A stretch of 64,000 nt of DNA from an uncultured Acidobacteriota bacterium (GCA_964617125.1 CAZTVS010000005.1:16529-80528), one strand, 5' to 3'; shown: positions 31,325 to 50,021, numbered from the stretch's first letter. The notes: generated from the sequence alone by a model not told the origin. Numbers and translations: made by a program.

Positions 31325-31330
31325 GTTCAA

Positions 31331-31581
31331 ATCCTCAAACTAGAATACGAATACTAAGATTCTATTCTTTATATAAATAAAAGTAGTCGTAATAGGACCG
31401 TAGGAAACTGTGGATTTCGCCCTAAACGATAGAAGTCATATTCTTTGCTTTGCACAACGCTTCCACATACGGGTTCGATATTTTCGTGGAAAAAAGAAAT
31501 AAAGGTTCTTTTCCGCGCTTTTCCTCAGAGATTCACAATCTCTCCACAGGGGATCCAGGAGTGGTTCTGTGGAAACAAATT
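31331..31581. promoter_or_regulatory. dnaA-dnaN intergenic region with four TGTGGA-containing DnaA-box-like 9-mers; possible part of oriC
   Basis: TGTGGATTT (31409-31417) is a 7/9 match to TGTGGATAA. Three more TGTGGA cores sit within 250 bp and the region is AT-rich. Confidence 0.35.
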
Positions 31582-32910
31582 CTAACGGAATTTAGAGGAA
31601 ATCTTCAGGATCAGATCGTTGATCTCCTGGTTCTTTTTTCGATCGGTTTCTATCTTGCGAATCGAGTGCAGAACGGTCGTATGATGTTTTCCGCCGAAGG
31701 TCTTTCCGATACAGGGCAGTGAAACCTGGGCCAGCTCTTTACACAGATACATAGCGATCTGCCGGGGAACGGTGATCTCGCGAGAGTTGTTCTTGGACTT
31801 CAACACCGAGGGCTTCATACGGAAATGGTCGGCCACCGCTTTCAGAATGATTTCCGATGTCAGATTGTTTTTTCCCATCTGGACGATACCGGACAATGCC
31901 TCCTCGGTGAAGGCCAGGTCGATCTCGGAACCGCTCATCTCACTGAGGGCCATAATCCGGTTGAGAGCCGATTCCAGTGCGCGCACATGCGACTTGACCT
32001 GATGAGCTATGAAGAGCGCCACATCGTCGGCAAGGTCGACATTTTTCTCGGATGCCTTCTTCTTCAGAATGGCGAAACGGGTTTCCGTATCGGGAGGTTG
32101 GATATCGGCGATCAGGCCCCATTCGAAGCGGGAATGGAGACGTTCTTCCAGGGTTGGAATCTCCTTGGGTGGGCAGTCGCTGGTGATTACGATCTGCTTT
32201 TGCGCATCATACAGGCTGTTGAAGGTGTGGAAGAATTCTTCCTGAGTCCTCTCTTTTCCTGCCAGAAACTGAATGTCGTCCATCAGCAGGATATCGATGT
32301 TGCGGTACACCTCGCGAAAACGATAAGTCCTGTCCATCTTGATGGCGTTGATCATATCGTTGGTGAATTTTTCCGCCGGAACGTAGACCAGTTTTAAATG
32401 GGCGTTCTTGCTGAGGATGGAGTGACCGATGGCGTGCATCAGGTGAGTTTTGCCCAGGGCCGAGCTGCCGTGAATATAGAGAGGATTGTAGGCGTGAGAA
32501 GGTTGCTTGGCCACGGCGAAGGCGGCGGCATGGGCAAACTGATTGGAGTTTCCCACTACGAAGGAATCGAAAGTGTATTTGGGATTCAGGTTGATGCTGA
32601 GTCCGCTACCTTCATGAGAGGAATTCCATTTTTCGGAAAGAGAGACCTCGGAACTGCTTTCCTGTGAAGGGGTATCTTCTTCCACCACAATAAACAGCTG
32701 AAAATTGCTGAGAGAAAGATCGTTGAAAATTCCCTGCAACAAGGAGGAAAATTTTTCCAAAAAGGCGTTGCGGAAATAGGAAGTAGGAACACTTACCTTG
32801 ATGGTATTGTGATCTTGGGAGAGGAACAAAACGGGACGAAACCATGTCTGATAAACGGATTCATCGATACGCTTGTTGACTTCCTGCAGGATGATTTTCC
32901 ACAAGTCCAT
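31582..32910 (-). CDS. dnaA: chromosomal replication initiator protein DnaA
   Basis: AAA+ Walker A (GSSALGKTHL) and a C-terminal DNA-binding domain. The ATG at 32910 gives MDLWKIILQE…. The ORF track extends to a TTG at 32922. Confidence 0.95.
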   Translation of the reverse strand: MDLWKIILQEVNKRIDESVYQTWFRPVLFLSQDHNTIKVSVPTSYFRNAFLEKFSSLLQGIFNDLSLSNFQLFIVVEEDTPSQESSSEVSLSEKWNSSHEGSGLSINLNPKYTFDSFVVGNSNQFAHAAAFAVAKQPSHAYNPLYIHGSSALGKTHLMHAIGHSILSKNAHLKLVYVPAEKFTNDMINAIKMDRTYRFREVYRNIDILLMDDIQFLAGKERTQEEFFHTFNSLYDAQKQIVITSDCPPKEIPTLEERLHSRFEWGLIADIQPPDTETRFAILKKKASEKNVDLADDVALFIAHQVKSHVRALESALNRIMALSEMSGSEIDLAFTEEALSGIVQMGKNNLTSEIILKAVADHFRMKPSVLKSKNNSREITVPRQIAMYLCKELAQVSLPCIGKTFGGKHHTTVLHSIRKIETDRKKNQEINDLILKISSKFR

Positions 32911-32922
32911 AAATAATAGCAA

Positions 32923-34186: not shown

Positions 34187-35089
34187 TTACCTCCAAATAT
34201 ATTCGAAACGTATCGTGGATTGAGACGGGTCACCGGAGAAGGGAAGAACCGAACTGGCATCATTCATCAGGATGTCCCAAATACTGGTCTTTTTCTTTTT
34301 AATGCTGACCGTCCGGGGCTCTCCGCGGATTTCCGCCAGTTTACCGGCCAGAAGGATGGCATCCTGCAGGGTGCCCAGCTCGTCGACCAGACCCTTTTGC
34401 AGCGCATCTTCGCCGGTAAAAACGCGACCGTCGGCCAGGGTCTTGACGCTCTCTACATCCATGTGCCGCCCGTCGGCGACGGCTTTGACAAACTGGAAAT
34501 AGAGGCCGTCGATCAAGCCCTGGAAATAGCGGCGTTCGTTCTCGGTAAGCGGACGAGAGGGATTTCCCGCATCTTTCATTTCGCCGCTCTTGATCACTTC
34601 GTTCTTCAGTTTGGCCCAGGCCATCAACTCACCCCAGTTGACCCATTCGGCGATTACACCGATGCTGCCGGTGATGGTAGCCGGATTGGCCACGATCTTA
34701 TCCGCGGCACAAGCAACGTAGTATCCGCCGGAGGCGGCGACGCTGCCCATGGATGCGACCACTTTTTTCCTGGTTTCCTTGCGAAAACGAAGTACTTCCG
34801 TATAGATCTCCTGAGATGCAGCAGCGCCCCCGCCCGGACTATTGATGTTCAGGACGAGGGCCTTGATCTGGGACTGTTTACGAAATGTTTTCAGCTGATC
34901 GATATATGGCTTGGCATCGTAAATGGCACCGGTGACATCGATGAGAGCCACCTGGCTGCCGCTGTTCAGAGAAAAGGACCATTCTTCATCCGACGGACCG
35001 GTCATAAGTAACGCGACCAGGCAGAGGACGAAAAACAGCAGGCAGGCACCACCGATCACCAACCATAAAAACAGCTTACTCTTATTCAT
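34187..35089 (-). CDS. sppA: signal peptide peptidase SppA (36K type)
   Basis: N-terminal TM helix, then a ClpP/crotonase fold with the catalytic Ser motif region (…ASMGSVAASGGYYVA…) and a Lys dyad. Confidence 0.85.
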   Translation of the reverse strand: MNKSKLFLWLVIGGACLLFFVLCLVALLMTGPSDEEWSFSLNSGSQVALIDVTGAIYDAKPYIDQLKTFRKQSQIKALVLNINSPGGGAAASQEIYTEVLRFRKETRKKVVASMGSVAASGGYYVACAADKIVANPATITGSIGVIAEWVNWGELMAWAKLKNEVIKSGEMKDAGNPSRPLTENERRYFQGLIDGLYFQFVKAVADGRHMDVESVKTLADGRVFTGEDALQKGLVDELGTLQDAILLAGKLAEIRGEPRTVSIKKKKTSIWDILMNDASSVLPFSGDPSQSTIRFEYIWR

Positions 35090-35151
35090 AATGTTCTATG
35101 GAAAATAGAGTCTGTTAGCGATAAAGAGAATGCACCACTCTATCGGAAATC

Positions 35152-36954
35152 CTACTCGGAATCCGAACGACGCTGGGAAAGCAGGTCCTTCAGTTGATCG
35201 CCGACCCGATCGCCCATGGTGACCGGAGCCGGTTCCGATTCGGCCAGCGCTCGAATGATGCGGGTGTCATCCTCTTTCAATGCCTTGAGGCTGAGTCCGA
35301 TCTTCTTTTCGGAAATGTTCATCTTAATGATGCGCATATCGATTTCCTGTCCGGGCTTCAGGATCTCTTCCGGCTTTTCCACGTGACGCTCATCCAGCTC
35401 GGAAACGTGACAGAGGCCCTCGATCCCTTCCGCCAACTGGACAAAGGCACCGAAATTGGTAATACGGACCACGTTGCCCTTGACCACATCTCCGATCTGA
35501 TGACGGGAGGCGAAATCTTCCCAACGATCCGGTTCCAGCTGCTTGATACCCAGAGAGATCTTCTGGCTGTCGGAGTCGATGCTCAGGATAACCGCATTGA
35601 CCGTGTCGCCCTTTTTCAGAACTTCGCTCGGATGTTTGATCCGTTTGGTCCAGGACATATCGCTGACGTGCACCAGTCCGTCGATACCTTCCTCGATCTC
35701 AACGAAGGCCCCAAACTCGGTCAGGTTGCGTACCTTGCCGGTGACCAGGGAACCGATGGCGTACTTCTCCAGAATCTGGTGCCAGGGGTTGGGTTCGGTC
35801 TGTTTGATGCCCAGGGAGATGCGGCGGTTTTCGGAATCGATTTCCAGAACCTGGGCTTCCACCTGTTCGCCCTCGTTCAGGATCTTGGAGGGGTGCTTGA
35901 TGCGCTTGTTCCAGGTCATCTCCGAAATATGGATCAGACCTTCCACTCCGGGTTCCAGCTCGACAAAGGCGCCATATTCGGTGATGTTGACGACTTTACC
36001 CGACACACGGGAATTCTTGGGGTATCTTTCGGCGGCCGTTTCCCAAGGATCCGCGCTCATCTGCTTCAGGCCGAGGGAGACACGATTTTCCGCCCGGTCG
36101 AACTTGATGACCTTGACCTTGATCTTCTCACCGATGGTCAGCTTCTCCGAAGGATGCTTTACCCTGCCGTAAGACATGTCGGTGATGTGCAGCAGCCCAT
36201 CGATGCCCCCGAGATCGATAAAGGCTCCGTACTCGGTGATGTTCTTGACTACACCTTCAATAATGCAGCCTTCGGTGAGGGTTTCCAGCGTACGCTTTTT
36301 CTCCTGCTCCAGTTCCGTTTCCAGGACAACCTTGCGGGAGAGGACAATGTTCCCGCGCCGGCGATTCACCTTGATGACCTTCATGCGGAACTCTTCGCCG
36401 CGAAGGGCATCCAGATTGCGGACAGGACGAACATCGATCTGGGAACCGGGAAGAAAAGCGCGGACGCCGATATCGACGGCCAGGCCACCTTTGATCCGTT
36501 CGATCACACGGCCGGTGATTACGGTATTGTCACGGAACGCCTTTTCGATCTCATCCCATATCTTCATCCTTTCCGCCTTCTCGCGGGAAAGGGAGATATA
36601 TCCGTTCTGGTCTTCCGTCTGTTCGAGATAGACATCGATATCCTGCCCAGGGCGAAGATCCACTTTACCGTTCTCTCCTTCGAACTCTTCAATGGGGATG
36701 ACTCCTTCCGATTTGAAGCCGATATCGACCGTGACCTTCGATTCGCTGATGTTGATCACGCGACCGCGAATGACGTCCCCTTCGGAAAACTTTTTAAAGC
36801 TTCCATAATAGTCGTCCAGCAGTTGCGCGTAATCGATATTGGTCGCGTCCTCGAACTGGATCCGCTGTTGAATCTCGTTCGAAGCCGGTTCCGGCTTGTT
36901 GGGTGAAGTACTCTCCACCGATTCCGTGTTTTTCTTTTCGTTGTTTACATCCAT
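35152..36954 (-). CDS. rpsA: 30S ribosomal protein S1
   Basis: Six tandem S1 (OB-fold) repeats. Product is 600 aa. Confidence 0.95.
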   Translation of the reverse strand: MDVNNEKKNTESVESTSPNKPEPASNEIQQRIQFEDATNIDYAQLLDDYYGSFKKFSEGDVIRGRVINISESKVTVDIGFKSEGVIPIEEFEGENGKVDLRPGQDIDVYLEQTEDQNGYISLSREKAERMKIWDEIEKAFRDNTVITGRVIERIKGGLAVDIGVRAFLPGSQIDVRPVRNLDALRGEEFRMKVIKVNRRRGNIVLSRKVVLETELEQEKKRTLETLTEGCIIEGVVKNITEYGAFIDLGGIDGLLHITDMSYGRVKHPSEKLTIGEKIKVKVIKFDRAENRVSLGLKQMSADPWETAAERYPKNSRVSGKVVNITEYGAFVELEPGVEGLIHISEMTWNKRIKHPSKILNEGEQVEAQVLEIDSENRRISLGIKQTEPNPWHQILEKYAIGSLVTGKVRNLTEFGAFVEIEEGIDGLVHVSDMSWTKRIKHPSEVLKKGDTVNAVILSIDSDSQKISLGIKQLEPDRWEDFASRHQIGDVVKGNVVRITNFGAFVQLAEGIEGLCHVSELDERHVEKPEEILKPGQEIDMRIIKMNISEKKIGLSLKALKEDDTRIIRALAESEPAPVTMGDRVGDQLKDLLSQRRSDSE

Positions 36955-37331
36955 GAATGAAGTTGCCTCCGATTTTTAAAAATTATTTCCGGATAGTCAG
37001 CCAACCGCCGGAAATTCAATCGATTATGATTGCGGTCCAAGAGAAAAAAAGAATAAAGAAAACTGTGAAAATAGCGAACCACGGAAACAGCGTTCGGTGA
37101 GAAGCCGATAGAAAGAGGATGGAAGATTCCGGCACAAAGCTCTGTGAGGAGTAGCTTCACAGACAGCACTGCCCGCGACGGGAGATCGCCGTAGCGCGTT
37201 CCCGCAACGTAAAATGAAGCTAAAGGATTTGGCAAAAAACGAGAAACCTCTTTTTTCCGAGATTTTTAAAGCACATCTTTTTATCGTGAGATCACCGGTT
37301 TGTCAAGATCCACAAAAATAAAAATTTAGGG

Positions 37332-37337
37332 TATAAT
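37332..37337 (+). promoter_or_regulatory. TATAAT -10 hexamer about 45 nt upstream of rpmE
   Basis: TATAAT is read directly from the sequence. There is no well-spaced -35 element: a TTGTCA lies 26 nt upstream. Confidence 0.25.
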
Positions 37338-37381
37338 CTTCAGTTCTGGTAAAAATTTTAATGATTTGAGGTTCTGTTTTC

Positions 37382-37585
37382 ATGAAAAAAGACATTCATC
37401 CGACCTACCATAAGGTCACGGTAACTTGTGCTTGCGGAAACCGGTTTGAGACCTGCTCTACGAAGAAAGAGATCCGTCTGGAAATCTGTTCCCAATGCCA
37501 TCCCTTCTTCACCGGAAAGCAAAAGCTGATCGACACCGCCGGAAGAATCGAAAAATTCCAGAGAAAATACGCTGCCAAGAAGTAA
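37382..37585 (+). CDS. rpmE: 50S ribosomal protein L31 (zinc-ribbon type)
   Basis: [20 protein letters not shown]…[13 protein letters not shown] with two CxxC pairs. Confidence 0.95.
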
Positions 37586-37690
37586 GCTGCAAAATTACCC
37601 ACCTACTCCTCTTTTTTCCTTGTCAGTATACCGGTAGGAAGAGTTGTAGGTGGTTTGCATCCATCCCTGGTTCTATGAGGACGAAAGGAT

Positions 37691-38764
37691 ATGCTGGCAA
37701 AACTGGAAGAAATTAGAAATACACACGAGCAGATATCCCGACAGCTGACGGATCCGGAAATCATTGCGGACCGGCAGAAATACCTGCAGTGCGTCAAGGC
37801 GCATAAAGAACTGTCGGAAATTGTCGACAAGTATCAGGAATATCAATCCCTTTGCAGCAAAATGGATGAGGCCAGGCACCTCTCGGAGGAAGAAGAGGAC
37901 CTGGAGATGAAGGAACTTGCCCTGGAAGAGCTCGGTGAGCTGGAAAAACGCAAGGTCGCCTGCGAAACCGAGCTGCGCGACCTGCTGATGCCCAAGGATC
38001 CGGAGGATTCCAAAAACGTACTGCTGGAAATCCGCGCCGGGACCGGAGGTGATGAGGCCACTCTTTTCGCCCAGGAGGTGTTCCGCATGTACAGCCGGTA
38101 TTGCGAGCGGCACAACTGGAAGATGCAGCTCACCTCGCTGCATGAAAGCGAAGTAGGCGGACTCAAGGAAGTAGTGGCCATGATCGAGGGAGAACGGGTC
38201 TACAGCCGCATGAAATACGAAAGCGGCGTGCATCGCGTGCAGCGGGTGCCCAAAACGGAGGCTTCGGGACGGGTGCACACCTCTGCCATTACCGTCGCGG
38301 TTCTGCCGGAAGCGGATGAGGTGGAGGTCAATATCGATCCCAAAGACCTGCGCATCGACACATTCTGTTCCTCGGGTCCGGGCGGCCAATCGGTCAATAC
38401 CACATACTCTGCCGTCCGCATCACCCATATACCCACGGGAACGATCGTGTCCTGTCAGGATGAAAAATCGCAAATTAAAAACAGGGCCAAAGGAATGCGG
38501 GTCCTGCGTTCCCGGCTTCTGGAAAAGGCCAAGAACGAGCAGATGGCCTCGATTTCGGAGAACCGTAGACAGATGGTCGGGACCGGCGACCGCAGCGAAA
38601 AGATACGCACCTATAATTACCCCCAGAATCGTGTCACCGACCACCGCATCGGATTGACGCTCTACCAGTTGGATGAGGTCATGGACGGCTCCATCGATGC
38701 CTTCTTCGATGCCCTGACCACTCACTATCAGGCGGAAAAACTGAAGCAGCAGTCCATAGCCTGA
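37691..38764 (+). CDS. prfA: peptide chain release factor 1
   Basis: GGQ motif ([11 protein letters not shown]). The remaining domains read as RF1-type. Confidence 0.95.
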
Positions 38765-38804
38765 AGACCTCTTCCTCCCGGGGCAAAAGCCGGTTTGTTT
38801 TTCA

Positions 38805-39719
38805 TTGAAACGGACCTTCATGGGAAAAGCAGGAGATAACCGGTTGAACTCCTTACTTGCCCGCGGGCGGGAGTTTTTGCAGCAGAAGGGTATAAGGCAA
38901 TATGGCTGGGACGCTCTCCTGCTGCTTGCCTGCGTCCTGCATAAAGAAAAAGAATATATCTTCGCCCACCCGGAAAAAATCCTGACTCCAGTCCAGGTAA
39001 AACGGTTCTGGAACTTTCTGCAGCGAAGGGTCGAAGGAATTCCTTTACAATACCTGCAGGGAGTACAGGAATTCTGGGGGCGTGACTTTCGAGTGGACTG
39101 GCGGGTACTGATACCCCGTCCGGAGACCGAACTGCTGGTGGAAAAGGCCATCGAACAAGCCGGAAGGATCCAATCGCGACGTAAACTGCCGTTCCTTTCC
39201 ATTGCCGATATCGGAACCGGATCCGGTTGCATTGCGATTACCCTGGCACTGGAAATTGAAAATTGTCGGGTGGTTGCCACCGACATCAGCGAAGAAGCCT
39301 TGCAAAGGGCCAGAAGCAATGCTCGCCGGTACGGACTGAGGTCGCCATCCCTGCGTTTCTGTTGCGGAGATGGCCTGGAACCCCTGAAAAGATTGGGTTC
39401 TACGACTCGCTGGCAAATGATCGTGAGCAATCCTCCTTACGTGGCCCGAAGGGAGGAGGCGTCGCTCGACCGAGAAGTGAAGGACCACGAACCGGAGGTC
39501 GCGCTTTTCGGAGGAGAGGATGGGCTGGAGATGATTCGAGGTCTGGTCCCTCAAGTTGAGGAATATCTTGAATCGGAGGGGGTCTTTCTCATGGAAATAG
39601 GATATGGTCAGGAAAGCCAAGTGAAGGACCTGTTCTGCAGCAAGAAGTGGAAGTCGGTACGCTTCTGGCCGGACTGCCGTGGAATCCCACGATGTCTGCA
39701 GGCTGAGAAATACGGCTAA
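38805..39719 (+). CDS. prmC: release-factor glutamine N5-methyltransferase PrmC/HemK
   Basis: SAM motif I (DIGTGSGCIAI) and the NPPY catalytic motif. Confidence 0.85.
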   Translation: MKRTFMGKAGDNRLNSLLARGREFLQQKGIRQYGWDALLLLACVLHKEKEYIFAHPEKILTPVQVKRFWNFLQRRVEGIPLQYLQGVQEFWGRDFRVDWRVLIPRPETELLVEKAIEQAGRIQSRRKLPFLSIADIGTGSGCIAITLALEIENCRVVATDISEEALQRARSNARRYGLRSPSLRFCCGDGLEPLKRLGSTTRWQMIVSNPPYVARREEASLDREVKDHEPEVALFGGEDGLEMIRGLVPQVEEYLESEGVFLMEIGYGQESQVKDLFCSKKWKSVRFWPDCRGIPRCLQAEKYG

Positions 39720-39761
39720 TAGTACACATATCCACACATACAAAACCAAGGAGAAGAAGCT

Positions 39762-40106
39762 ATGAGCGATTGCCTTTTTTGCAGGATCATAGAAAAAGAG
39801 ATTCCGGCAAAAACGGTTTATGAAGATCAGGATACTTTGGTCTTCGAGGACATCCATCCGCAAGCCCCGGTTCACTGTCTTGTCATTCCCAAAAAACACA
39901 TCCCTTCCATCAACAGCCTCACGGAAGAGGATAGCGCCTTGTTGGCAAAGGTCATGCAGACGGCAAGAAAAACCGCCATGGACAAAGGCATCGACAAATC
40001 GGGATACCGTATGGTGATCAATACCAACGCCCAGGCCGGGCAGACCGTTTTTCACCTGCATGTACATCTGCTGGGTGGTCGGAACATGAATTGGCCGCCG
40101 GGATAG
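39762..40106 (+). CDS. HIT-family protein (Hint-like)
   Basis: CLFCRI…HCLVIPKKH…HLHVHLLGG is the classic Hint signature. Confidence 0.85.
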   Translation: MSDCLFCRIIEKEIPAKTVYEDQDTLVFEDIHPQAPVHCLVIPKKHIPSINSLTEEDSALLAKVMQTARKTAMDKGIDKSGYRMVINTNAQAGQTVFHLHVHLLGGRNMNWPPG

Positions 40107-40135
40107 AAAACAATTGGAAAAACCGATTCAGGGAT

Positions 40136-40245
40136 GACGAAGCGGTAAAAAGTCCTGGGAGCGCCGGCGTCCCGCCGGCAAAAGCAATGGAATCAACACG
40201 AGATTTGCGAAAAGAAACGGAACAAAGACTTTTTGCCGCTTCGTC
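40136..40245 (-). mobile_element. 110-bp MITE-like element (copy B) with 21-bp TIRs and 6-bp flanking direct repeat AGGGAT
   Basis: The left end GACGAAGCGGTAAAAAGTC is the reverse complement of the right end GACTTTTTGCCGCTTCGTC. The internal hairpin is GCCGGCGGGACGCCGGC. AGGGAT occurs at 40130-40135 and again at 40246-40251. Confidence 0.75.
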
Positions 40246-40534
40246 AGGGATGGTGCAGGCGGACGATGGTTGCGCCCCAGTGTCCCCTCTCCGGGGGCGC
40301 TTCATAATAATCGGCAACCATGTCCAACCGGGACAAAACCTTCCATACGAGGGAACGCAATACTCCTGTGCCCTTGCCGTGGATGATACGGACTTCCGGG
40401 ATATTCCGGCGGCGGCATTCCAGCAGATATTCCTCTACCAAGGAGGCAACTTCCCCGGGCTGAAAGGTATGCAGATCCAGAGAATCGCCAATGGGCACGA
40501 CTACGGCCGCATCTTCCCTGCTTTCCGGATTCAT
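40244..40534 (-). CDS. small Smr-domain protein (standalone Smr/MutS2-C-like nuclease domain)
   Basis: …LDLHTFQPGEVASLVEEYLLECRRRNIPEVRIIHGKGTGVLRSLVWKVLS… is the Smr signature. The ATG at 40534 immediately follows the stop of the upstream gene (TAAcATG). The stop codon straddles the repeat-element/TSD junction. The ORF track offers an alternative start at 40588. Confidence 0.65.
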   Translation of the reverse strand: MNPESREDAAVVVPIGDSLDLHTFQPGEVASLVEEYLLECRRRNIPEVRIIHGKGTGVLRSLVWKVLSRLDMVADYYEAPPERGHWGATIVRLHHP

Positions 40535-40535
40535 G

Positions 40536-41072
40536 TTAAAAGGAGCTCTTTTTCCCTCCACAGAGAACAATGAGGCGGCGCAGCGCATTGATTAAGCGTT
40601 GCCCGTCATCCCCTTCCGGACGGATGACGATATCCAGATGATCCTTTTTGATGGATCCGTTCAGGGTGACCGCCGGATTACGATTGGTTGCCTGGATGAT
40701 CAGGGTTCGTTCCCGGCCAAGAGAGAGGGGATCTCCGGGCATCACCCTGAGCTCGATCTGTTCCGGATCCAGGACGTTCAGGGGGGCCGTCCACTGGAAT
40801 TTTTTCTCCGTCAGTGCCCCGGGATTACGTCGGTGGGTTACGTTGATGGTGCAATTCTCGATGGAAACGGCCACTGTCGCATCATAATACGATACGGTAG
40901 AAATGATTTGCGGATTCCATTGAGCGTTCAGGCTGTTCACCAGAAAATCGATCGTCTCCTTCTGTGAAGGTTCGGTGGAGGCCTGATCACCGTGATGGCA
41001 GGCCGGAGAAGCCATAAGGAGAAGAGAGAAGAGGAGGGACATCCTCAGGGATACGTTTTTTAGCGCGAACAT
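40536..41072 (-). CDS. hypothetical secreted protein (co-cistronic with the Smr gene)
   Basis: The ATG at 41072 is preceded by GAGG. A signal peptide (…SLLFSLLLMASPA) is followed by an approximately 150-aa domain with no recognised family. The ORF track begins at a TTG at 41117. Confidence 0.5.
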   Translation of the reverse strand: MFALKNVSLRMSLLFSLLLMASPACHHGDQASTEPSQKETIDFLVNSLNAQWNPQIISTVSYYDATVAVSIENCTINVTHRRNPGALTEKKFQWTAPLNVLDPEQIELRVMPGDPLSLGRERTLIIQATNRNPAVTLNGSIKKDHLDIVIRPEGDDGQRLINALRRLIVLCGGKKSSF

Positions 41073-41151
41073 AGCATTACCTCTGAGAAAGAAGAGAAAA
41101 CGAATAAGAAAAACCAATCATCCTCGCGATAAATCGATAACTGGTATTCAT

Positions 41152-41261
41152 GACGGCCCGGCAAAAAGTCTTTATTCCGTTTCTTTTCGTAAATTCCGTG
41201 TTGATTCCATTGTTTTTGCCGGCGGGACGCCGGCGCTCCCAGGACTTTTTACCGGGCCGTC
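41152..41261 (+). mobile_element. 110-bp MITE-like element (copy C) with 21-bp TIRs and 6-bp flanking direct repeat ATTCAT
   Basis: The left end GACGGCCCGGCAAAAAGTC is the reverse complement of the right end GACTTTTTACCGGGCCGTC. ATTCAT occurs at 41146-41151 and 41262-41267. The internal 70 bp are about 95% identical to the reverse complement of copy B. Confidence 0.75.
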
Positions 41262-41302
41262 ATTCATTATAATCACTTCAATACGAAAGCGTAAGGCAGA
41301 GA

Positions 41303-42592
41303 GTGGAAGAATTTAAAGATCGCCGCCTTTTGTTGTTCTTGCTGGCGGTAAATACGGTCAATTTTTACGATCGGCAGCTGCTGGGAGCCGTCACCGAGCC
41401 GATACGCCGGGAGTGGCTCTTAAGCGATCTCCAGATAGGATTTTTGAGTACGGCCTTTACTCTTCTCTATGCCGGTGCCGGAATCCCGTTAGGCAGAATG
41501 GCCGATACTCGATCTGGAAAAACGGTACTGCAGCTGGGACTGCTCGTATGGAGCCTGCTGACCGGGCTTTGCAGTTTTGCCTGGAACTACTGGTCACTTT
41601 TCCTACTCCGCATTGGAGTCGGAATAGGGGAGGCGTGTTGTGCCCCGACGGCGATCAGCATCATTGGGAAAAGATTCCCTGTTACCGGACGTTCTGCAGC
41701 GACATCTCTTTTCATGATGGGGCTGCCGCTTGGTTCTGCCTTGAGTTATTCCCTGGGCGGATATCTTTCCCACGAATACGGCTGGCGCTGGGCCTTCCTG
41801 ACTGCCGGCTTGGCTGGAATCCTGCTGGCTGTCATCGGAAGGTATGGGATCGAGTTTGCCGAGGAAAGAAAAACAACCGTACCGCAACACGAAAGAGAAA
41901 AACAACGGAGCGGATTTCCTCTTTTATTGTCAATCCTGAGAGTCCCAGGCTTTTTCTGGATCATTCTTTCCGGGGCGCTGCATAACTTTAACCTGTATGC
42001 CGTCAGTGCCTTTCTTCCTTCTTTTCTGGTTCGCTACCACAGGATGGACATTGCAAACGCCGGCTTTACCTCCGGGATTGCTTACGCCCTGTTGGGCGGA
42101 ATCGGCATGATCCTGGGCGGATTTATGGGAGATCGCTTCCGCCCCGGAAAACATTTGCCACGGAACAGATTAATGCTGGTGTTTCTTACCATGATTCCAA
42201 CCACACCCTTGTGTTTTCTTGCCCTGTCTTACCCCCAGGGGGATGTGGTTCCATTCGCGCTCGCTTTCGGGGCTGCCGCCATGCTGATGTACGTTTATTA
42301 TCCGGTCACCTACGCCGCCATCCAGGATGTAAGCCCGAAGGAGTCACAGGCCACGGCGATGTCGATCTACCTGGCGGTCATGTATTTTTTAGGCGCCTCC
42401 TTGGGTCCGTCCGTTTTCGGAGGTCTGAGCGACTATTTCCAGAAAAGAATAGGCAGCCAATCAGGTTTGGCCATCGATAGGAATTGGGTAGAAGGGGAAG
42501 GCCTGCGTCAGGCAATGTTCCTCATACCGGTTCTTACCATGGCCGTTGCACTGACAAGTCTTATTGCCGCAAACCGGGTGCGGAAAAACTGA
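41303..42592 (+). CDS. MFS transporter
   Basis: GTG start. 12 TM helices and the MFS motif A region (GRMADTRSGK). Confidence 0.85.
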   Translation: MEEFKDRRLLLFLLAVNTVNFYDRQLLGAVTEPIRREWLLSDLQIGFLSTAFTLLYAGAGIPLGRMADTRSGKTVLQLGLLVWSLLTGLCSFAWNYWSLFLLRIGVGIGEACCAPTAISIIGKRFPVTGRSAATSLFMMGLPLGSALSYSLGGYLSHEYGWRWAFLTAGLAGILLAVIGRYGIEFAEERKTTVPQHEREKQRSGFPLLLSILRVPGFFWIILSGALHNFNLYAVSAFLPSFLVRYHRMDIANAGFTSGIAYALLGGIGMILGGFMGDRFRPGKHLPRNRLMLVFLTMIPTTPLCFLALSYPQGDVVPFALAFGAAAMLMYVYYPVTYAAIQDVSPKESQATAMSIYLAVMYFLGASLGPSVFGGLSDYFQKRIGSQSGLAIDRNWVEGEGLRQAMFLIPVLTMAVALTSLIAANRVRKN

Positions 42593-42702
42593 CAACCAGG
42601 CTAATTATGAAATTCAGCCCCGGCGCACTTGATTTGCCGGCTAAGTTGAATTAAGATTACCAGTTCCTGGAAATTCTTAGATAAATTGGAGTTAAAGAGA
42701 AA

Positions 42703-42843
42703 ATGAAAAGAACGTTTCAACCGAATAACCATAAGAAGCTGAAGACACATGGTTTTCGCTCACGTATGAGTACCAAACAAGGCAGAGATGTACTGAAAAG
42801 GCGCAGAGCCAAGGGCCGGCATCGGTTAACGGTGAGTGGATAA
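42703..42843 (+). CDS. rpmH: 50S ribosomal protein L34
   Basis: [46 protein letters not shown], 46 aa. It is below the ORF-track length cutoff and was found by direct translation. Confidence 0.9.
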
Positions 42844-43264
42844 ACAGAGCGAACGATTCCCAAGGAATCGAAGGATAAGAAAATCCTGTCAATACGATGT
42901 TATCTACAAGGAAGGGCTCAAGGTTCAATCCGGATATTTTGCCTTATACGGAATGTGGAACGGCGAGGGCTTTCATCGGCTGGGAATGACTGTTTCCCGC
43001 AAAGTGGGTAATGCCGTAACCAGGAACAGAATTAAAAGATGGGTTCGGGAGATCTTTCGGAAAAAATTCGGGAGAGATCTCGAACCGATGGATTTGGTAC
43101 TGAACGCCAAGAAGGCCATCGTACAATGCAACTACCATCAACTGGAAGAGGAGTTGGTTCAGGGATCCATTCGTTTGCATCGCAATCTTAAGAAACGGAA
43201 CCTTAGAGAAGAAACCTCCGAGAGTGATAAGACAGCTCCTTGTCCTGATACTGAAAATTTATAA
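42836..43264 (+). CDS. rnpA: ribonuclease P protein component
   Basis: The GTG start overlaps the rpmH end. The conserved region is …[26 protein letters not shown]…. Confidence 0.85.
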
Positions 43265-43436
43265 ACGGTTTCTGTCACCGTTTCTACCCAAAGCATGCCG
43301 CTTTTACCCCACCTGTTCCGAGTACATGATGGAAGCGCTTCAAAAGCACGGATTGAGGCGAGGATTGTTACTCGGAACGCTAAGACTGGCAAAGTGCCAT
43401 CCGTTTCACCCCGGGGGATATGATCCCGTTCCATAA
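43224..43436 (+). CDS. yidD: membrane protein insertion efficiency factor YidD
   Basis: …[31 protein letters not shown]… is the YidD signature. Confidence 0.9.
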   Translation: MIRQLLVLILKIYKRFLSPFLPKACRFYPTCSEYMMEALQKHGLRRGLLLGTLRLAKCHPFHPGGYDPVP

Positions 43437-43451
43437 GAGGTCAGCATCGAT

Positions 43452-45128
43452 ATGCAGCAAGAACACAGACTCGTCCTAGCACTCGCCTTGTCCGCTCTGG
43501 TTTTGTTCCTGGCCAGAATGTACATGACACCCGAACCCCAGAGTGTGCCGGAACCTGTCAAAAAGGAAGAAATCTCCAAAGAAACGGCATCTATCGAAAG
43601 GCCGGTTGTAGCTGCGGAAAAAGCAAAAGAGAGCGGGAGTTCCGGTCCGGAATCTCCGACACCCGTCGCGGCCACGCAGGCCCCGGAAAGGACCATCGCG
43701 ATTCAGGATCCCAAATACCGGATCGTATTACAGAGTCATGGGGCGAGGATCGAGAGCTGGAAATACAAAGAGAGATCCGGAAACGAAATGGAACTCGTCC
43801 TGCAGGACAAACCGAAAGATCTCTACGGACCCCTGGCCGTTATCGGTGGCGACGCGTCCGTCCAAGACAAGATAAACAATGCGATCTACGAAATCAGGGT
43901 GGTAGGACAGCAGGGAGATTCTCTGAAGACCCCGGTGGAACTGGAGTGTTTCTACCAGGAGGGTCCGTTAAAAATCAGTAAGAAAATGGGATTTGCCGAG
44001 TCCTCCTTTGTCGTGGAAACGATCACGGAAGTGGAGTATCAGGGAAAACGGCTGGAAGGACTGAAGTTACGTATTGGTCCGGCGATGGGCGCCTTTGATA
44101 CCCTGTTGAACAAAGCGACCTGGGACACTCAGGGTCTGGCGTATTATAGCAACGGCTCTCTGAACAAACTGCAATACAGCGCGATCGAAACGGAACAGAC
44201 GATGGAGGGAAGTATTCCCTGGGCCGGAATCCAGGACCAGTACTTCGCCATGCTGGCTATATCTCCGGAAGGGAAAAGCCTTCATGGAGGAAAGATCCTA
44301 TCCTGGAAGTATAAAGGCAAGGACATACAGGAGAAGGAGACCGAGTTTAACGTCGGGGCCATCGACATACCGCTTTTTCAGGGAGAAAAGCAAAGGATCT
44401 ATTTCGGTCCCAAGGAAGACCAACAGCTGAAAAGCATCCATCCTGCTCTGGACCAGGTCATAGACTACGGGTGGTTCCGCATCCTGGTGGAGCCGATGCT
44501 CTACGCCTTGCGCTGGATCCATTCTCTCACCCCCAATTACGGGGTGGCTATCATCATCATGACCTTTCTGATCACACTGGTCCTGTTCCCCTTACGCTTT
44601 AAGCAGATCATCTCCATGAAGAAGATGCAGAAAATTCAACCGCAGATGAAAGCGATTCAGGAACGATACAAAAAGGCTAAGAGCAGTGCGGAAGACAGAC
44701 AGAAGATGAATACGGAGATGATGGCTCTTTACAAGCAACACGGGGTCAACCCGGTGGGAGGGTGTCTGCCGCTGCTGATTCAATTTCCTTTCCTCATCGC
44801 CGTCTACAACCTGGTGGGAAATCACTTCAACCTCAGAGGAGCTCCCTTCCTTTTGTGGATACAGAACCTGGCTGCCCCCGATCCCTATTATGTGACCCCG
44901 ATCGTCATGGGCATCACCATGTTTCTCTCGATGAAACTGACCACACCGCCGACGGCAGGCGATCCTATGCAGAACAAGATGATGGCCTGGATGATGCCGG
45001 GTATGATGACATTTTTCTTTTTGGGAATGTCCGCAGGATTGAATGTCTATTTCCTATTCAGTAATATTTTCAGCATCGCCCTGCAAAAGGCGGCCGAACG
45101 ATACATTCCGGCTCTGAAAAATGCATGA
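43452..45128 (+). CDS. yidC: membrane protein insertase YidC
   Basis: N-terminal TM, a periplasmic domain, and a conserved C-terminal five-TM core (…YGVAIIIMTFLITLVLFPL…NPVGGCLPLLIQFPF…). Confidence 0.95.
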   Translation: MQQEHRLVLALALSALVLFLARMYMTPEPQSVPEPVKKEEISKETASIERPVVAAEKAKESGSSGPESPTPVAATQAPERTIAIQDPKYRIVLQSHGARIESWKYKERSGNEMELVLQDKPKDLYGPLAVIGGDASVQDKINNAIYEIRVVGQQGDSLKTPVELECFYQEGPLKISKKMGFAESSFVVETITEVEYQGKRLEGLKLRIGPAMGAFDTLLNKATWDTQGLAYYSNGSLNKLQYSAIETEQTMEGSIPWAGIQDQYFAMLAISPEGKSLHGGKILSWKYKGKDIQEKETEFNVGAIDIPLFQGEKQRIYFGPKEDQQLKSIHPALDQVIDYGWFRILVEPMLYALRWIHSLTPNYGVAIIIMTFLITLVLFPLRFKQIISMKKMQKIQPQMKAIQERYKKAKSSAEDRQKMNTEMMALYKQHGVNPVGGCLPLLIQFPFLIAVYNLVGNHFNLRGAPFLLWIQNLAAPDPYYVTPIVMGITMFLSMKLTTPPTAGDPMQNKMMAWMMPGMMTFFFLGMSAGLNVYFLFSNIFSIALQKAAERYIPALKNA

Positions 45129-45165
45129 AGCAACAACCAAGGACCGATAGCATACGGGTGGAAAA

Positions 45166-45615
45166 GTGAACAATCAACTGGAAGAAATCAAGAAAACAAC
45201 CGAACATCTCTGTCGTTGCATGAAATTCCATGTGGAGGTGGAGTGCGCGCCACAGGAAGAAGGAATACTTGTTAGTTTTAAGGGAAAAGATGCGGAATTC
45301 CTCCTGCTGAAAAACGGAGAGGTATTGAACGCTATGGAATACATCCTGAACCGTATCTTCTCCGAGAAACTGACCAAAGAGAACAAGATTGTCACCGACA
45401 GCCAGAATTTCCGGAAATTCCGGAATGACGAACTGAAGATGATCGCGCAAAAGGCCTCGGAAAAGGTCATGCAGTATGGATCCTCCGTGCAGCTGCAGGC
45501 CATGCCGCCTCACGAAAGAAGGATCATCCATATGGCCTTGAAAGAAAATAGCAAGGTGAAAACCATCAGTGAGGGGGAGGGAGAGGACCGGAAAGTGATC
45601 ATTGAACCGGCTTAA
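45166..45615 (+). CDS. Jag/KhpB-like RNA-binding protein (KH plus R3H domains)
   Basis: GTG start. A C-terminal R3H-like region (…MPPHERRIIHMALKE…). The position after yidC is the conserved synteny. Confidence 0.75.
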   Translation: MNNQLEEIKKTTEHLCRCMKFHVEVECAPQEEGILVSFKGKDAEFLLLKNGEVLNAMEYILNRIFSEKLTKENKIVTDSQNFRKFRNDELKMIAQKASEKVMQYGSSVQLQAMPPHERRIIHMALKENSKVKTISEGEGEDRKVIIEPA

Positions 45616-45642
45616 AGGGAAGTTCTTTACCGCACGCGGGGC

Positions 45643-46041
45643 TCAGGGCAAAAAGGAGCGAAGATAGGATAAAAAGGCCGAATCCGCCTCAGGAAAGGCA
45701 TAATCGGACAATTGTGCGGAGGTAACCCAACGAAAATCATTACACTGGAGAAGTTGCGGTTCTCCCTGCAAACGAACACACTTATAAAAATGGAGGATGA
45801 CACGAAAATCCTCATAGTCGTGGGAAATGGAAGAGATTCGGTTTCCCACGGAAATCTCCAATCCCAGTTCTTCCAGAATCTCACGATGAAGGCACTCCGC
45901 ATGACTCTCGCCCGGATGACACTTACCCCCGGGAAACTCCCACAGCAGAGAACAGTGTGCCTGCGCCAATCGTTGCGTAATCAGAAAACGGCCATCCTCA
46001 AACAGGACGGCCGCGCAAACCTCTACAGATTTCTTCGTCAT
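45643..46041 (-). CDS. Nudix hydrolase (MutT-like 8-oxo-dGTP/CTP pyrophosphohydrolase)
   Basis: Nudix box GGKCHPGESHAECLHREILEELGL. Confidence 0.8.
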   Translation of the reverse strand: MTKKSVEVCAAVLFEDGRFLITQRLAQAHCSLLWEFPGGKCHPGESHAECLHREILEELGLEISVGNRISSISHDYEDFRVILHFYKCVRLQGEPQLLQCNDFRWVTSAQLSDYAFPEADSAFLSYLRSFLP

Positions 46042-46118
46042 ATCGGTTCCCGTCTTTTGTTGCTGCCGACTCCATCATAATGGAAAGTAAAAAGAAATAC
46101 AAAGAAGGCAGATAGGAT

Positions 46119-47492
46119 ATGTTGACGGCCGAGGACACGATTGTGGCCATCGCCACTCCGATGGGAAAAGGCGCCATCAGCATGCTTCGCATCAGTGGAA
46201 GCAAAGCTCTGACCATTGCCGGCGAGTTATTCCAAAGCCAATCGACAGACCGAGAAATACGACCGTTTTTTCCTCACGTAGGAAAATTCTACGATCGCAA
46301 CCATCGCATGCTGGACCAGGTCGTGCTCCTGTACTACCAAAAACCAAAATCCTATACCGGCGAAGACCTGGTGGAGATATGCTGTCATGGGAGTCCGGTA
46401 GTGGCCGCGGAAATTCTCTCGGAGATACAGAAGCAGGGGGCACGCTGTGCCGATCCGGGAGAGTTTAGTCTACGGGCCTTTCTGAATGGGAAGATGGACC
46501 TGACCCAGGCCGAGAGTATACATCAGCTGATCGAAGCACAAACACTGAGGCAGGCGCAGATCGCCGTTACACAGATCGACGGGAGATTAACCGAAACCAT
46601 CGGGAAGATCAAAGAAGCGCTCCTGAAAATCATGGTGGATATGGAGACAGCCCTGGAATTCGAGGAACACGCAGCGCAAAAGGATGCGATGTATGAAACA
46701 GGCGTGCGGCAGATCGAGGAGGAATTGAATCGTCTGGTAAAGTGTTTTGCACAAGGGAACATACTACGAACCGGCAAAAAAATTGCCATCATCGGACGGC
46801 CAAACGTAGGAAAATCGAGTTTATTCAATCAGATAGTGAAGAAAGAAAGAGCTATTGTATATCACCTTCCCGGAACGACGCGCGATAGTATCCATGAAAC
46901 GGTAGAGATGAAGGGTGTACCCGTAACTATAATGGATACAGCGGGATGGAGAGCGACTCGAAACAGGGTGGAACAACAAGGGGTTGAGAGGAGTGCAAGG
47001 GCCATAGAAGAAGCGGATATGGTTCTCCTGGTGATCGACATGGAAAAAGGTGCTTCCAGGACGGAAGCGATGCTAAGGAACAAGGTACTGGCTTTGAACA
47101 AGGACATGATTGTGATTTGGAATAAGATCGATCGCTGTCCCCAGGATGCCAGAAGCCGGGGCAAATCGGACGCATGGGAAGACACCTGTTACCTTTCCGC
47201 CAAAAAGGGAACTGGTATAGATAGTCTGATTACGACCATAGAAAAAAAGATCCTGCCGGAGGAGAGGGGAACGGAGGAGACCATCCTGGTGGGAATACGG
47301 TATCAGGATTGTCTGGAAAGATGCCTGCTTCGTTTGCGAGATGCCGAGGAAAAAATCCGCTACCGCTATTCGGAAGAGTATGTCCTGGCCGATCTGAATG
47401 ACTCTCTGAAAATCCTGGGTGAGATTACCGGAGAGACGGTCACAGAAGAGATATTAGGCAGAATTTTCTCCAAATTCTGTATAGGAAAATAG
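46119..47492 (+). CDS. mnmE: tRNA modification GTPase MnmE
   Basis: N-terminal THF-binding domain, G-domain motifs (GRPNVGKSS, DTAG, NKID) and the C-terminal CIGK. Confidence 0.95.
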   Translation: MLTAEDTIVAIATPMGKGAISMLRISGSKALTIAGELFQSQSTDREIRPFFPHVGKFYDRNHRMLDQVVLLYYQKPKSYTGEDLVEICCHGSPVVAAEILSEIQKQGARCADPGEFSLRAFLNGKMDLTQAESIHQLIEAQTLRQAQIAVTQIDGRLTETIGKIKEALLKIMVDMETALEFEEHAAQKDAMYETGVRQIEEELNRLVKCFAQGNILRTGKKIAIIGRPNVGKSSLFNQIVKKERAIVYHLPGTTRDSIHETVEMKGVPVTIMDTAGWRATRNRVEQQGVERSARAIEEADMVLLVIDMEKGASRTEAMLRNKVLALNKDMIVIWNKIDRCPQDARSRGKSDAWEDTCYLSAKKGTGIDSLITTIEKKILPEERGTEETILVGIRYQDCLERCLLRLRDAEEKIRYRYSEEYVLADLNDSLKILGEITGETVTEEILGRIFSKFCIGK

Positions 47493-47493
47493 G

Positions 47494-49380
47494 GTGTCCA
47501 TAAGAAAAGATCAGTCGGAAGGTGCCTACGAGGTGATCGTTATCGGTGCAGGTCATGCCGGATGCGAGGCTGCCATGGCTGCGGCCAAGACCGGCTGTAA
47601 GACTGCTTTGATCACGATGAATCTCGATCTGATGGCTCAGATGTCGTGCAATCCATCGATCGGTGGGATAGGAAAAGGACACCTGGTATGTGAGATCGAC
47701 GCATTGGGAGGCGTCATGGCGGAGGTGGCCGACAGTGCGGCAATTCAATACCGATTGTTGAATAAGAGCCGGGGACCTGCCGTACAGGCCACACGAATCC
47801 AGGCTGATAAATCGATCTATCGGGCGAGAATGAAACAGCGGCTGGAGAAGGAGGAAAATCTCTTTCTCCTCCAGGGAGAAGTGGTAGACCTGGAAATGGA
47901 AGACGGGAGAGTTACCGGGGTGGAACTGCATGATACCAGGAAAATTCATGCCAGGGCGGTGGTTTTGACTGCCGGAACTTTTCTCAATGGCCTGGTACAT
48001 ATTGGAGAGATGCAGTTTCCAGCGGGAAGATCAGGGGAACCGGCCAGCATCAGGTTATCGCAAAGGCTGAAACAGGTCGGTCTGCAACCGGTCAGATTGA
48101 AAACGGGAACACCGGCAAGGATCGATGGGCGGACCATCGACAGGACGAAAATGGAAATTCAGCATGGAGACGAAAAGCCGGTCTTCTTTTCCAGACGAAC
48201 CAAGGAATGCAGCTTGACCCAGATCCCTTGCTTTCTGACCTATACCAATCAGGAGGTACACAGGATCATACGGGAGAATTTGCACCGCTCGGCCCTATAT
48301 GGTGGTCGGATCGTAGGCATTGGTCCCCGCTATTGCCCCTCCATCGAAGACAAGATTGTGAAATTCCCGGAAAAAGAGAGGCATCAGATCTTCATCGAAC
48401 CGGAAGGACTGACAACCAATGAGGTATATGTAAACGGTCTGTCCACAAGCCTGCCGATCGAGATCCAGGAGAGAATGATACACTCTGTACCCGGTCTGGA
48501 AAGGGCTGTAATCATACGCCCGGCCTACGCCATTGAGTACGATTTTTATCAGCCGAACGAGCTGAAGCTCTCTCTGGAGACAAATCGGATTCAGGGACTA
48601 TTCCACGCGGGACAGGTAAACGGAACAACCGGTTATGAAGAGGCGGCCGCTCAGGGATTGATCGCAGGGATCAATGCAGCCAGATTCAGCAGAAATCAGG
48701 AACCGTATATTCCGGACAGGGAAAACAGCTATATTGGTATTATGCTGCACGATATTACCGGAAAAGGTATCGACGAGCCTTACCGTATGTTCACCTCGAG
48801 ATCGGAATACCGACTGATCATGCGCACGGACAATGCGGATATCAGGCTTTCGGGGGACGCCCATAGGTTAGGTATGATCGGAGCCTCCGAGATAGAAAAA
48901 GTAGAAGAAAAAAAGAAAAAGATAGAACGCTGGAAGGAGCTGCTGAGAACGACACGCGGCAAACAGCTGCTGGAAATACCGGATGTGCAAATTAGCTGGC
49001 CGGAAGGCATATTGCAGCAAAACCTAATGGAAATATTAAAAAGGCCGGAAATACGCATCGAGAATATGTATCCCTTTCTAAAAAGGAACGAGGGGAAAGA
49101 GGATCTGGATGAAGAGACACTCAAGATCGTCGAGATAGAGGTAAAGTACGAAGGGTATGTGGCTAGGCAGGGAAAAGAGGCGGAAAAAAGTAGAAAAATG
49201 CGGGGAATGAACCTGCCGGCAGATATGGACTATGCCAGGATGGATGGTTTATCCAGAGAGATACGGGAAAAACTGGAACGACGGAAGCCGGCCAATCTGA
49301 AGGAGGCCAGCGAAATTCCCGGCGTTACTCCGGCAGCGATCATGATTCTGAGAATTTATCTGGAAATGAGGAAGAAGTGA
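47494..49380 (+). CDS. mnmG: tRNA uridine-5-carboxymethylaminomethyl modification enzyme MnmG (GidA)
   Basis: FAD-binding motif VIVIGAGHAGCEAA. Product is 628 aa. Confidence 0.95.
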   Translation: MSIRKDQSEGAYEVIVIGAGHAGCEAAMAAAKTGCKTALITMNLDLMAQMSCNPSIGGIGKGHLVCEIDALGGVMAEVADSAAIQYRLLNKSRGPAVQATRIQADKSIYRARMKQRLEKEENLFLLQGEVVDLEMEDGRVTGVELHDTRKIHARAVVLTAGTFLNGLVHIGEMQFPAGRSGEPASIRLSQRLKQVGLQPVRLKTGTPARIDGRTIDRTKMEIQHGDEKPVFFSRRTKECSLTQIPCFLTYTNQEVHRIIRENLHRSALYGGRIVGIGPRYCPSIEDKIVKFPEKERHQIFIEPEGLTTNEVYVNGLSTSLPIEIQERMIHSVPGLERAVIIRPAYAIEYDFYQPNELKLSLETNRIQGLFHAGQVNGTTGYEEAAAQGLIAGINAARFSRNQEPYIPDRENSYIGIMLHDITGKGIDEPYRMFTSRSEYRLIMRTDNADIRLSGDAHRLGMIGASEIEKVEEKKKKIERWKELLRTTRGKQLLEIPDVQISWPEGILQQNLMEILKRPEIRIENMYPFLKRNEGKEDLDEETLKIVEIEVKYEGYVARQGKEAEKSRKMRGMNLPADMDYARMDGLSREIREKLERRKPANLKEASEIPGVTPAAIMILRIYLEMRKK

Positions 49381-50021
49381 GCGAGCTGGAAAACATCCTT
49401 AAAGAGGAGGCCAAAAAGATCCCTTTGCCATTACCCGATGGAATTGTCCATAAAATTGTTCGCTACGACAATTTATTGCAGGAATGGAACCAGAGGATCA
49501 ATCTTACGGGATTGAACGATGCCAAAGAAAGAATCATTTGGCTTTACCTGGAATCGTTGTGGGCTGCCTCCCATCTGCAGAAAATAGATCACATCCTCGA
49601 TATAGGAGCGGGATGCGGATTTCCCGGAATGGCCATCCAGTGGTGGCATGATTGCCGGTTAACCATGCTGGAATCCAGAAAAAAGAAATGTGACTTTTTG
49701 CAGGAGGCCATATCTTGCTGCGATATGAGCGGGAGTGAGGTGAAAAACGTTCGATACGAAGGCGATCTTCCTATGCCGCTCAAGGAGAGGGGAGCGGAGA
49801 AGCTACTTTTTTGTTGGCGGGCCGTAAGCCTGGGTACAAAGACGATTCAAAGGATGGCGGGAAGCATGAGAAAAGGGGATGAACTGCTATGTTTTTTCGG
49901 AAGAGAGAGCAAGGATTTCCCGATCGTCGAAAAAAGTCCATTTCTTAAGGTAAAACTAAAAAAAGAATTTCCATTATCAAAGCAAAGATATATACTTCAG
50001 ATGATGAAATGTTCCACGTGA
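49377..50021 (+). CDS. rsmG: 16S rRNA (guanine527-N7)-methyltransferase RsmG (GidB)
   Basis: GTG start overlapping the mnmG stop. SAM motif DIGAGCGFPG. Confidence 0.85.
   Translation: MSELENILKEEAKKIPLPLPDGIVHKIVRYDNLLQEWNQRINLTGLNDAKERIIWLYLESLWAASHLQKIDHILDIGAGCGFPGMAIQWWHDCRLTMLESRKKKCDFLQEAISCCDMSGSEVKNVRYEGDLPMPLKERGAEKLLFCWRAVSLGTKTIQRMAGSMRKGDELLCFFGRESKDFPIVEKSPFLKVKLKKEFPLSKQRYILQMMKCST

Follow-up and report, generated by a model that had tools for sequence, protein, structure and literature searches.

A 64,000-nucleotide stretch of chromosomal DNA from an uncultured, Acidobacteriota-affiliated bacterium (GCA_964617125.1, CAZTVS010000005.1:16529-80528; hereafter the window) contains two intact copies, designated B and C, of a 110-bp repeat. 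With a probability of about 0.93, these are two independent and recent insertions of a non-autonomous DNA transposon, a family of miniature inverted-repeat transposable elements (MITEs) that is mobilized in trans, probably by a DDE-type enzyme. The unit has the features by which MITEs are recognized: small size, no coding content, inverted repeats, a flanking duplication of constant length and variable sequence, dispersed copies, and sites that are found precisely empty in relatives. The 110-bp element is thus a new family of a well-known kind.

A sequence-only reading of the window had proposed two 110-bp copies with a near-identical core, 21-bp terminal inverted repeats, and a different perfect 6-bp repeat beside each copy. 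All of this was borne out (Table 1). C lies inverted relative to B and aligns with its reverse complement (89% complementary over 118 nt with flanks), and the two are ~95% identical across the central 96 nt. The terminal inverted repeats extend over 20 nt in B (40135-40154 and 40227-40246) and 21 nt in C (41150-41170 and 41243-41263), are 95% complementary in each case, and include a complementary triplet that distinguishes the copies (AAG/CTT in B vs GCC/GGC in C). The ends of the unit read GACG...CGTC, with inverted repeats of 19-21 bp in the family (consensus GACGAAGCGGYAAAAAGTC ... GACTTTTTRCCGCTTCGTC). The unit has no coding capacity; its open frames are read-through only and are called as spurious open reading frames (ORFs). 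The perfect flanking hexamers (AGGGAT and ATTCAT) are not attributable to chance, because a 6/6 match across a 110-bp gap is expected at random at only 0.027% of window positions (2.7e-4; 0.49%, or 4.9e-3, for a match of at least 5/6). L103 and L104, two independent assemblies, also contain copy B.

Folded as RNA or single-stranded DNA, the unit would form a 20-bp stem around a hairpin, with predicted energies of -49 and -52 kcal/mol, z-scores of -4.9 and -6.0, and an interior predicted to be unstructured. No terminator-like or promoter-like sites were detected inside B or C in a simple scan. A T:G pair occurring in both B and C was considered as a strand-specific mark of an RNA stem and dropped, as the copies show T:G, C:G, and C:A at this place. 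What the first reading had missed is that the GC-rich hairpin inside the element belongs to a module of 26-28 nt (CCTGGGAGC-GCCGGCG-TCC-CGCCGGC, then AA) that resembles repetitive extragenic palindromic (REP) sequences and is common to several phyla. The module abuts the left inverted repeat of the unit.

Table 1. Window coordinates of the intact copies, their target-site duplications and modules, and the degenerate relatives.
Feature	Position	Strand	Remarks
Left target-site duplication of B, AGGGAT	40130-40135	none	Same letters as 40246-40251; single AGGGAT in sister contig L110
Copy B, intact 110-bp MITE	40136-40245	+	In the 21-nt spacer of the convergent HIT and Smr genes
Left terminal inverted repeat of B, GACGAAGCGGTAAAAAGTC	40136-40154	+	Paired with 40227-40245, including in the predicted fold
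REP-like module of B	40154-40181	+	Head CCTGGGAGC, hairpin GCCGGCG-TCC-CGCCGGC (40163-40179), then AA
Right terminal inverted repeat of B, GACTTTTTGCCGCTTCGTC	40227-40245	+	Pairs with 40136-40154
Right target-site duplication of B, AGGGAT	40246-40251	none	
First target-site duplication of C, ATTCAT	41146-41151	none	Same as 41262-41267; single ATTCAT in L110
Copy C, intact 110-bp MITE	41152-41261	-	In the divergent spacer (114 nt without the element) of a lipoprotein-like gene and an MFS transporter gene
REP-like module of C	41216-41243	-	
Second target-site duplication of C, ATTCAT	41262-41267	none	Adjoins a TATAAT hexamer
Copy A, degenerate relative	10038-10130	-	Decayed arms, different middle section; 82% to C
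Intact module of copy A	10091-10118	-	
Module of copy D, old divergent relative	30116-30143	-	In the dnaN-gyrB spacer

A search for empty sites, which the sequence-only reading had proposed as a check, located both of them. Relatives were found via the 90%-identity clusters of three window proteins, whose members from Logan assemblies included non-identical ones. Outside the strain, the nearest orthologue of the MFS protein was only ~50% identical; a variant of the HIT protein (P0132) led to five Logan contigs (L110-L114) from a sister lineage, which are syntenic with window positions 34773-45230 at 91-95% nucleotide identity. In all five contigs, the HIT-Smr spacer measures 21 nt and the lipoprotein-MFS spacer 114 nt; the window has 137 and 230 nt, respectively, and in both cases the difference is 116, or 110 + 6. 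At base level, the sister sequence reads ...CCATTC AGGGAT GGTGCAGG... at the B site and ...ACTGGT ATTCAT TATAATC... at the C site, so that L110-L114 have a single copy of each hexamer exactly where the window reads hexamer-element-hexamer. The blastn breakpoints against the sister sequence fall at 40136/40244 for B and 41151/41262 for C. With one hexamer at each empty site and precisely 116 bp missing, B and C must have inserted separately, each as a 110-bp unit that duplicated 6 bp of target. Both insertions are younger than the 5-9% divergence between the window and sister lineages. Insertion into pre-existing hairpins of the form GACGnnnCGG...CCGnnnCGTC was also considered and rejected: no empty hairpin of this kind occurs in the window, and the real empty sites are hairpin-free.

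The insertion point of B is the stop codon of the minus-strand Smr gene. The present TGA comprises the A at 40246, which is the first base of the duplication, and the TC at 40244-40245, the last two bases of the element. The terminal GA of B takes the place of the GA in the original flank, and the Smr C terminus is identical to that of the sister lineage. The duplication at C abuts a TATAAT hexamer located 30 nt upstream of the MFS start codon. With B rebuilding a stop codon and C splitting a divergent promoter region of 114 nt, any effects that the insertions may have on neighboring genes would be testable. The locus also changes at strain level. In L103, which matches the window locus at 99.8% identity, 31 nt of copy C are missing (window 41148-41178, comprising one arm and part of the duplication; position 1794/1795 of L103), two A's have been gained, and one module base is altered. 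Around C, the two sequences differ at five positions in 3.7 kb, and the deletion in C is the only indel. Its occurrence in so similar a strain indicates that the elements decay faster than their surroundings.

Further copies were sought by translating the element in its open frames and searching the protein collection for spurious ORFs that run through other copies. Four matches resulted, all from Joint Genome Institute (JGI) sample 3300022666, which also holds L103. Contigs L106-L109 each contain one full-length 110-bp copy, and partial copies were also found. Read in the orientation of B, the flanks in this set are AATACT/AATACT, AGTAAT/AGTAAT, AGGAAT/AGGATT, and AGGAAT/AAGAAT. A 6-bp flank repeat therefore accompanies all six full-length copies; four are perfect (AGGGAT, ATGAAT, AATACT, and AGTAAT) and two have one mismatch. 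The duplicated target is A/T-rich with an approximate consensus of A-R-K-R-A-T, and GAT follows in three of the six. This consensus is a target preference and not part of the element, because the hexamers differ far more than the ~5% divergence among the elements. The sequence-only reading had allowed that there might be no copies elsewhere, or that the flanks at other insertions might be unduplicated and the repeat a local duplication; instead, there are four more full-length copies as well as partial ones on other contigs, and the hexamers repeated at those insertions are distinct in sequence. In an alignment of seven copies, mean column identity was 94% and 88.7% of the outer-stem cells were paired. 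Two family-specific scans of JGI metagenome contigs yielded 0 matches in both, and the plasmid and phage collections gave no match.

Two of the contigs have features of their own. L108 holds a chimeric full-length copy (4986-5095; AAG-type left arm and GAC-type right arm) and a partial copy (4333-4372) with the left arm GACAACCCGGTAAAAAGTC and an interior of the type seen in A and D, including an internal duplication. Both L108 copies adjoin a lanthipeptide cluster containing a LanM-like gene and Nif11-type leader genes. L098 (CAZNGQ010000386.1; 1673 bp) carries the sole family copy found in the species-representative genome collection. This contig has a GC content of 56%, and the genes beside the copy code for repeats of the thrombospondin-type-1 and fibronectin-III-like types; its binning as Oscillospiraceae is probably wrong.

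A fixed 6-bp duplication combined with defined inverted repeats points to a transposase that makes staggered cuts and that must act in trans, the unit having no gene of its own. In the mechanism that we propose, an enzyme most likely of the DDE type and encoded elsewhere in the genome would act on the inverted repeats, its cuts, staggered by 6 bp, would duplicate 6 bp of A/T-rich target, and the REP-like hairpin module abutting the left inverted repeat would be carried in each unit. The window itself is free of transposase genes, as the sequence-only reading had stated. Pfam scans of 28 long ORFs, with the remainder annotated through syntenic contigs, identified no DDE or HUH transposase in the window; it holds housekeeping genes and a single recombinase, an XerC/D-type protein of 304 amino acids (57558-58472). 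No transposase was found on the other copy-bearing contigs (L106-L109), and no cognate autonomous insertion sequence (IS) with matching inverted repeats was present in the window or on those contigs.

Some observations weigh against a transposon of this kind. The autonomous element with matching inverted repeats was not found, and the putative DDE-type assignment is drawn from the 6-bp duplication. The family was retrieved only from the source organism and close relatives (JGI sample 3300022666, Logan runs, and the 1.7-kb contig L098). Arm positions 5-7 are variable, with AAG/CTT in four copies and a compensated GCC/GGC in C; the arms are non-complementary in L108 (AAG with GAC), and in L098 the right arm reads GAC and the left arm is degenerate. 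Such variability is unusual for transposase-bound ends. The L108 arm pattern looks like recombination between subfamilies.

The embedded module has a far wider distribution than the element. When one genome per species was scanned, a 28-mer with slight degeneracy matched at least 102 stretches. Among the matches listed were Acidobacteriota/Thermoanaerobaculia, Verrucomicrobiota, Planctomycetota, and Alpha-, Beta-, and Gammaproteobacteria, including complete chromosomes; others were on contigs of metagenome-assembled genomes from further phyla, whose binning we do not trust. In these genomes the module is high-copy, intergenic, and mostly arranged as inverted doublets with the heads outward. 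Adjacent inverted pairs had spacers of 4-69 nt in 38 of 42 cases, and the doublets have sharp ends at CCTGGG...CCCAGG without consistent flank repeats. The single long inverted pair (L065) brackets a housekeeping gene. Covariation was examined in instances with up to 5 mismatches, which are thus not biased by the search pattern. The head is conserved in sequence (CTGGGAGCGC), and the 7-bp GC stem, closed by a TCY loop, covaries (GCCGCCA/TGGCGGC, GCAGGCG/CGCCTGC, and GCCAGCG/CGCTGGC), with closing pairs of G-C, A-T, T-A, and C-G. According to heuristic gene calls, the orientation of the module relative to genes is contradictory between genomes, and modules outside the Alphaproteobacterial chromosome OZ241369.1 lie between convergent genes in 12 cases and between divergent genes in 2.

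No partner protein emerged. Within ~8 kb around a limited sample of copies (~100 fetched loci), no recurrent neighboring protein family was found other than clusters of spurious ORFs, and no ORF contained HUH and Y..NP motifs. These loci are too few to rule out a RAYT-type partner. Rfam returned nothing over the units at the gathering threshold (whole window) or at E<=10 (the region), and nothing real at the gathering threshold for 18 other loci. The sequences of module and element were absent from the searchable literature, save for a coincidental Drosophila primer. The label "undescribed" given to the element by the sequence-only reading is consistent with both results. One bacterial module doublet (L026 4999-5081) scored 54.2 bits with the plant microRNA family MIR169_6 (RF04244), whose gathering score is 54; the match is a false positive, due to the long hairpin, at the threshold that Rfam itself sets.

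On OZ241369.1 (2.76 Mb), the module occurs within a composite repeat of another kind, of which there are dozens of copies. The repeat is composed of the module, a second hairpin (ACGGGCCGCAAGGCCCGT), segments of the CACCGCCAGGCACC type, and runs of short tandem units resembling CACTAGCCACTGGCCACCGGCCAC; its loci include L001, L013, L042, L045, L049, L080, and ~25 others.

Near base-for-base conservation across phyla, high copy number, a covarying stem, and the lack of a known partner protein are together unexpected in a REP-type repeat. A tentative interpretation, which we consider more doubtful than probable, is that the module is an undescribed REP-like element of very wide range. Its near-identity in Acidobacteriota, Verrucomicrobiota, Planctomycetota, and Proteobacteria would then reflect either recognition by a conserved enzyme or host factor that lineages share through horizontal transfer, or horizontal spread of the module on repeated occasions, and the MITE in the window would be a staggered-cut transposon that has captured the module and disseminates it. 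If true, "orphan" REP-like repeats that have no transposase of their own would have a specific way to multiply, and carriage as the cargo of a target-duplicating transposon would be a testable explanation for the spread of such repeats.

The presence of the module raises the question of whether the units themselves are of the REP or REPIN type and move as single-stranded hairpins through a RAYT-like HUH tyrosine transposase. The module does have REP architecture, with its conserved head and covarying hairpin, and forms REPIN-like head-outward doublets without flank duplication in other phyla. However, HUH/Y1 transposition (IS200/IS605 and REP elements) is not known to generate a target duplication, whereas 6-bp duplications occur at six of six full-length copies and the sites of B and C are precisely empty. 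Each unit also has one module rather than a doublet, and the fetched loci contained no ORF with the HUH and Y..NP motifs. The GACG...CGTC ends recall the CGTC-tagged REPs (Di Nocera et al. 2013, PMC3733652). In those, an unpaired CGTC tag borders a stem of 8-9 bp that has A-T at its first two positions and a loop of 4-5 nt, and the tail is CCA. In the 110-bp unit, the CGTC is not an unpaired tag beside such a stem and loop; it is paired within the 20-bp stem, and a CGTC-tagged REP identity was rejected with CGTC and GACG paired at the base of a stem of 19-21 bp that encloses ~70 nt. Movement of the units as REP-type hairpins is accordingly highly improbable. The empty sites and the copy-specific duplications also uphold the original judgment that this is a footprint of transposition, not of a REP or terminator sequence.

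A less improbable alternative, though still an unlikely one, is that the unit is in the first place a host-selected regulatory element or structured RNA (a 3'-end stabilizer, an RNase III site, or a terminator) and that its spread is secondary. The predicted hairpin is very stable, C has three compensatory stem changes, and A, B, and D start 20-30 nt past the stop codon of a co-oriented gene. By our own tally of gene tables, 8 of 10 family copies are co-oriented with flanking genes, but this 8:2 split is not significant (one-sided binomial p ~0.055) and the module keeps no consistent orientation to genes from one genome to the next. The units match no Rfam family, contain no terminator- or promoter-like site, and have an interior predicted to be unstructured. 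Selection for the structure also fits poorly with the broken stem complementarity in L108, the loss of an arm of C in a near-identical strain, and the absence of B and C from the sister lineage and a more distant relative. The mutually inverted arrangement of B and C, bracketing two genes, could alternatively mean that the copies are the two ends of one segment, composite or invertible, with the Smr and lipoprotein-like genes inside it and 894 bp separating its inverted 118-nt arms. This is scarcely credible: each copy has its own, different target duplication, and the sister lineage has both genes in place without either element. The genes were therefore not brought by the elements, which refutes a composite origin. 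Recombination between B and C may still invert the segment. Independent insertion of a MITE accounts for B and C better than any of these readings.

Copies A and D are degenerate members of the same group (Table 1). At the D site, the sister lineage (L116) has a strongly diverged relative in which CGGCAAAAAGT...ACTTCTTGCC arms surround a different hairpin. No intact module was found in ~20 kb of syntenic sequence from the sister lineage, and a more distant relative (L119; 75% GyrB identity) has neither module nor element in 22.5 kb of the same region. The family seems to be restricted to the species-level lineage of the window and its sister lineage, with A and D old and decayed and B and C recent. 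The dnaN-gyrB spacer (window 29837-30175; L116 2118-2483; L119 9703-10000) behaves as a fast-evolving hairpin slot. It contains a module-bearing degenerate element in the window, a hairpin with an 11-bp stem between recognizable element arms in L116, and, in L119, an ordinary GC hairpin with a T-rich tract after it; the flanking spacer sequence is >90% conserved between the window and the sister.

The window covers the chromosomal origin region. The minus-strand genes gyrA, gyrB, dnaN, and dnaA lie within 24834-32922, and the plus-strand origin-region genes rnpA, yidD, yidC, an R3H/Jag gene, trmE, gidA, rsmG, parA, and parB within 42836-51726. The best named relatives of GyrB are from Acidobacteriota, at 58-60% identity; the host affiliates with Acidobacteriota as an uncultured, deep-branching lineage.

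For a MITE, the case is unusually clean, with boundaries, 6-bp duplications, and empty sites resolved to the base in an uncultured, Acidobacteriota-affiliated lineage. The source genome should contain an active transposase whose ends match and, given the recent insertions, the family could serve as a strain marker.

Several bacterial systems share parts of this design. RUP of Streptococcus pneumoniae, Nezha of cyanobacteria, and the Tn3-derived TIMEs are likewise short, lack coding content, and have terminal inverted repeats plus a duplication of fixed length, and bacterial MITEs in general have dispersed intergenic copies, vary in presence among close relatives, and are presumed to be mobilized in trans. 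RUP, Nezha, and TIMEs duplicate TA or 5 bp. In contrast, the 110-bp element has a 6-bp duplication of the A-R-K-R-A-T type, and its sequence is unrelated to any described family that we found. It also differs from known MITEs in that no cognate IS was identified and in its internal REP-like module, common to several phyla.

The sequence-only reading had likened the element to Correia and ERIC elements, a comparison that holds as an analogy of architecture but not as membership. Correia (NEMIS, Neisseria) and ERIC (Enterobacteriaceae) elements are likewise ~100-150 bp long, fold into long hairpins by pairing of their terminal inverted repeats, and are often cotranscribed with neighboring genes. 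Correia elements have a TA duplication, specific 26-bp inverted repeats, and an IHF site. The 110-bp element has a 6-bp non-TA duplication and GACG...CGTC ends. It has no apparent sequence similarity to Correia or ERIC elements and belongs to a different host phylum.

The embedded module is closest in design to REP and REPIN sequences (Di Nocera et al. 2013, PMC3733652; Bertels and Rainey), with which it shares a conserved single-stranded head, a short, GC-rich, covarying hairpin, high-copy intergenic occurrence and, in other genomes, a mostly doublet arrangement, inverted and without target duplication. Its head, CTGGGAGCGC, has neither tag of the GTAG- and CGTC-tagged REP superfamilies (PMC3733652). 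REP families are usually lineage-specific, whereas the module is near-identical in at least four phyla. It had no RAYT association in the sampled loci and, in the window, it occurs singly rather than as a doublet, as the cargo of a target-duplicating MITE.

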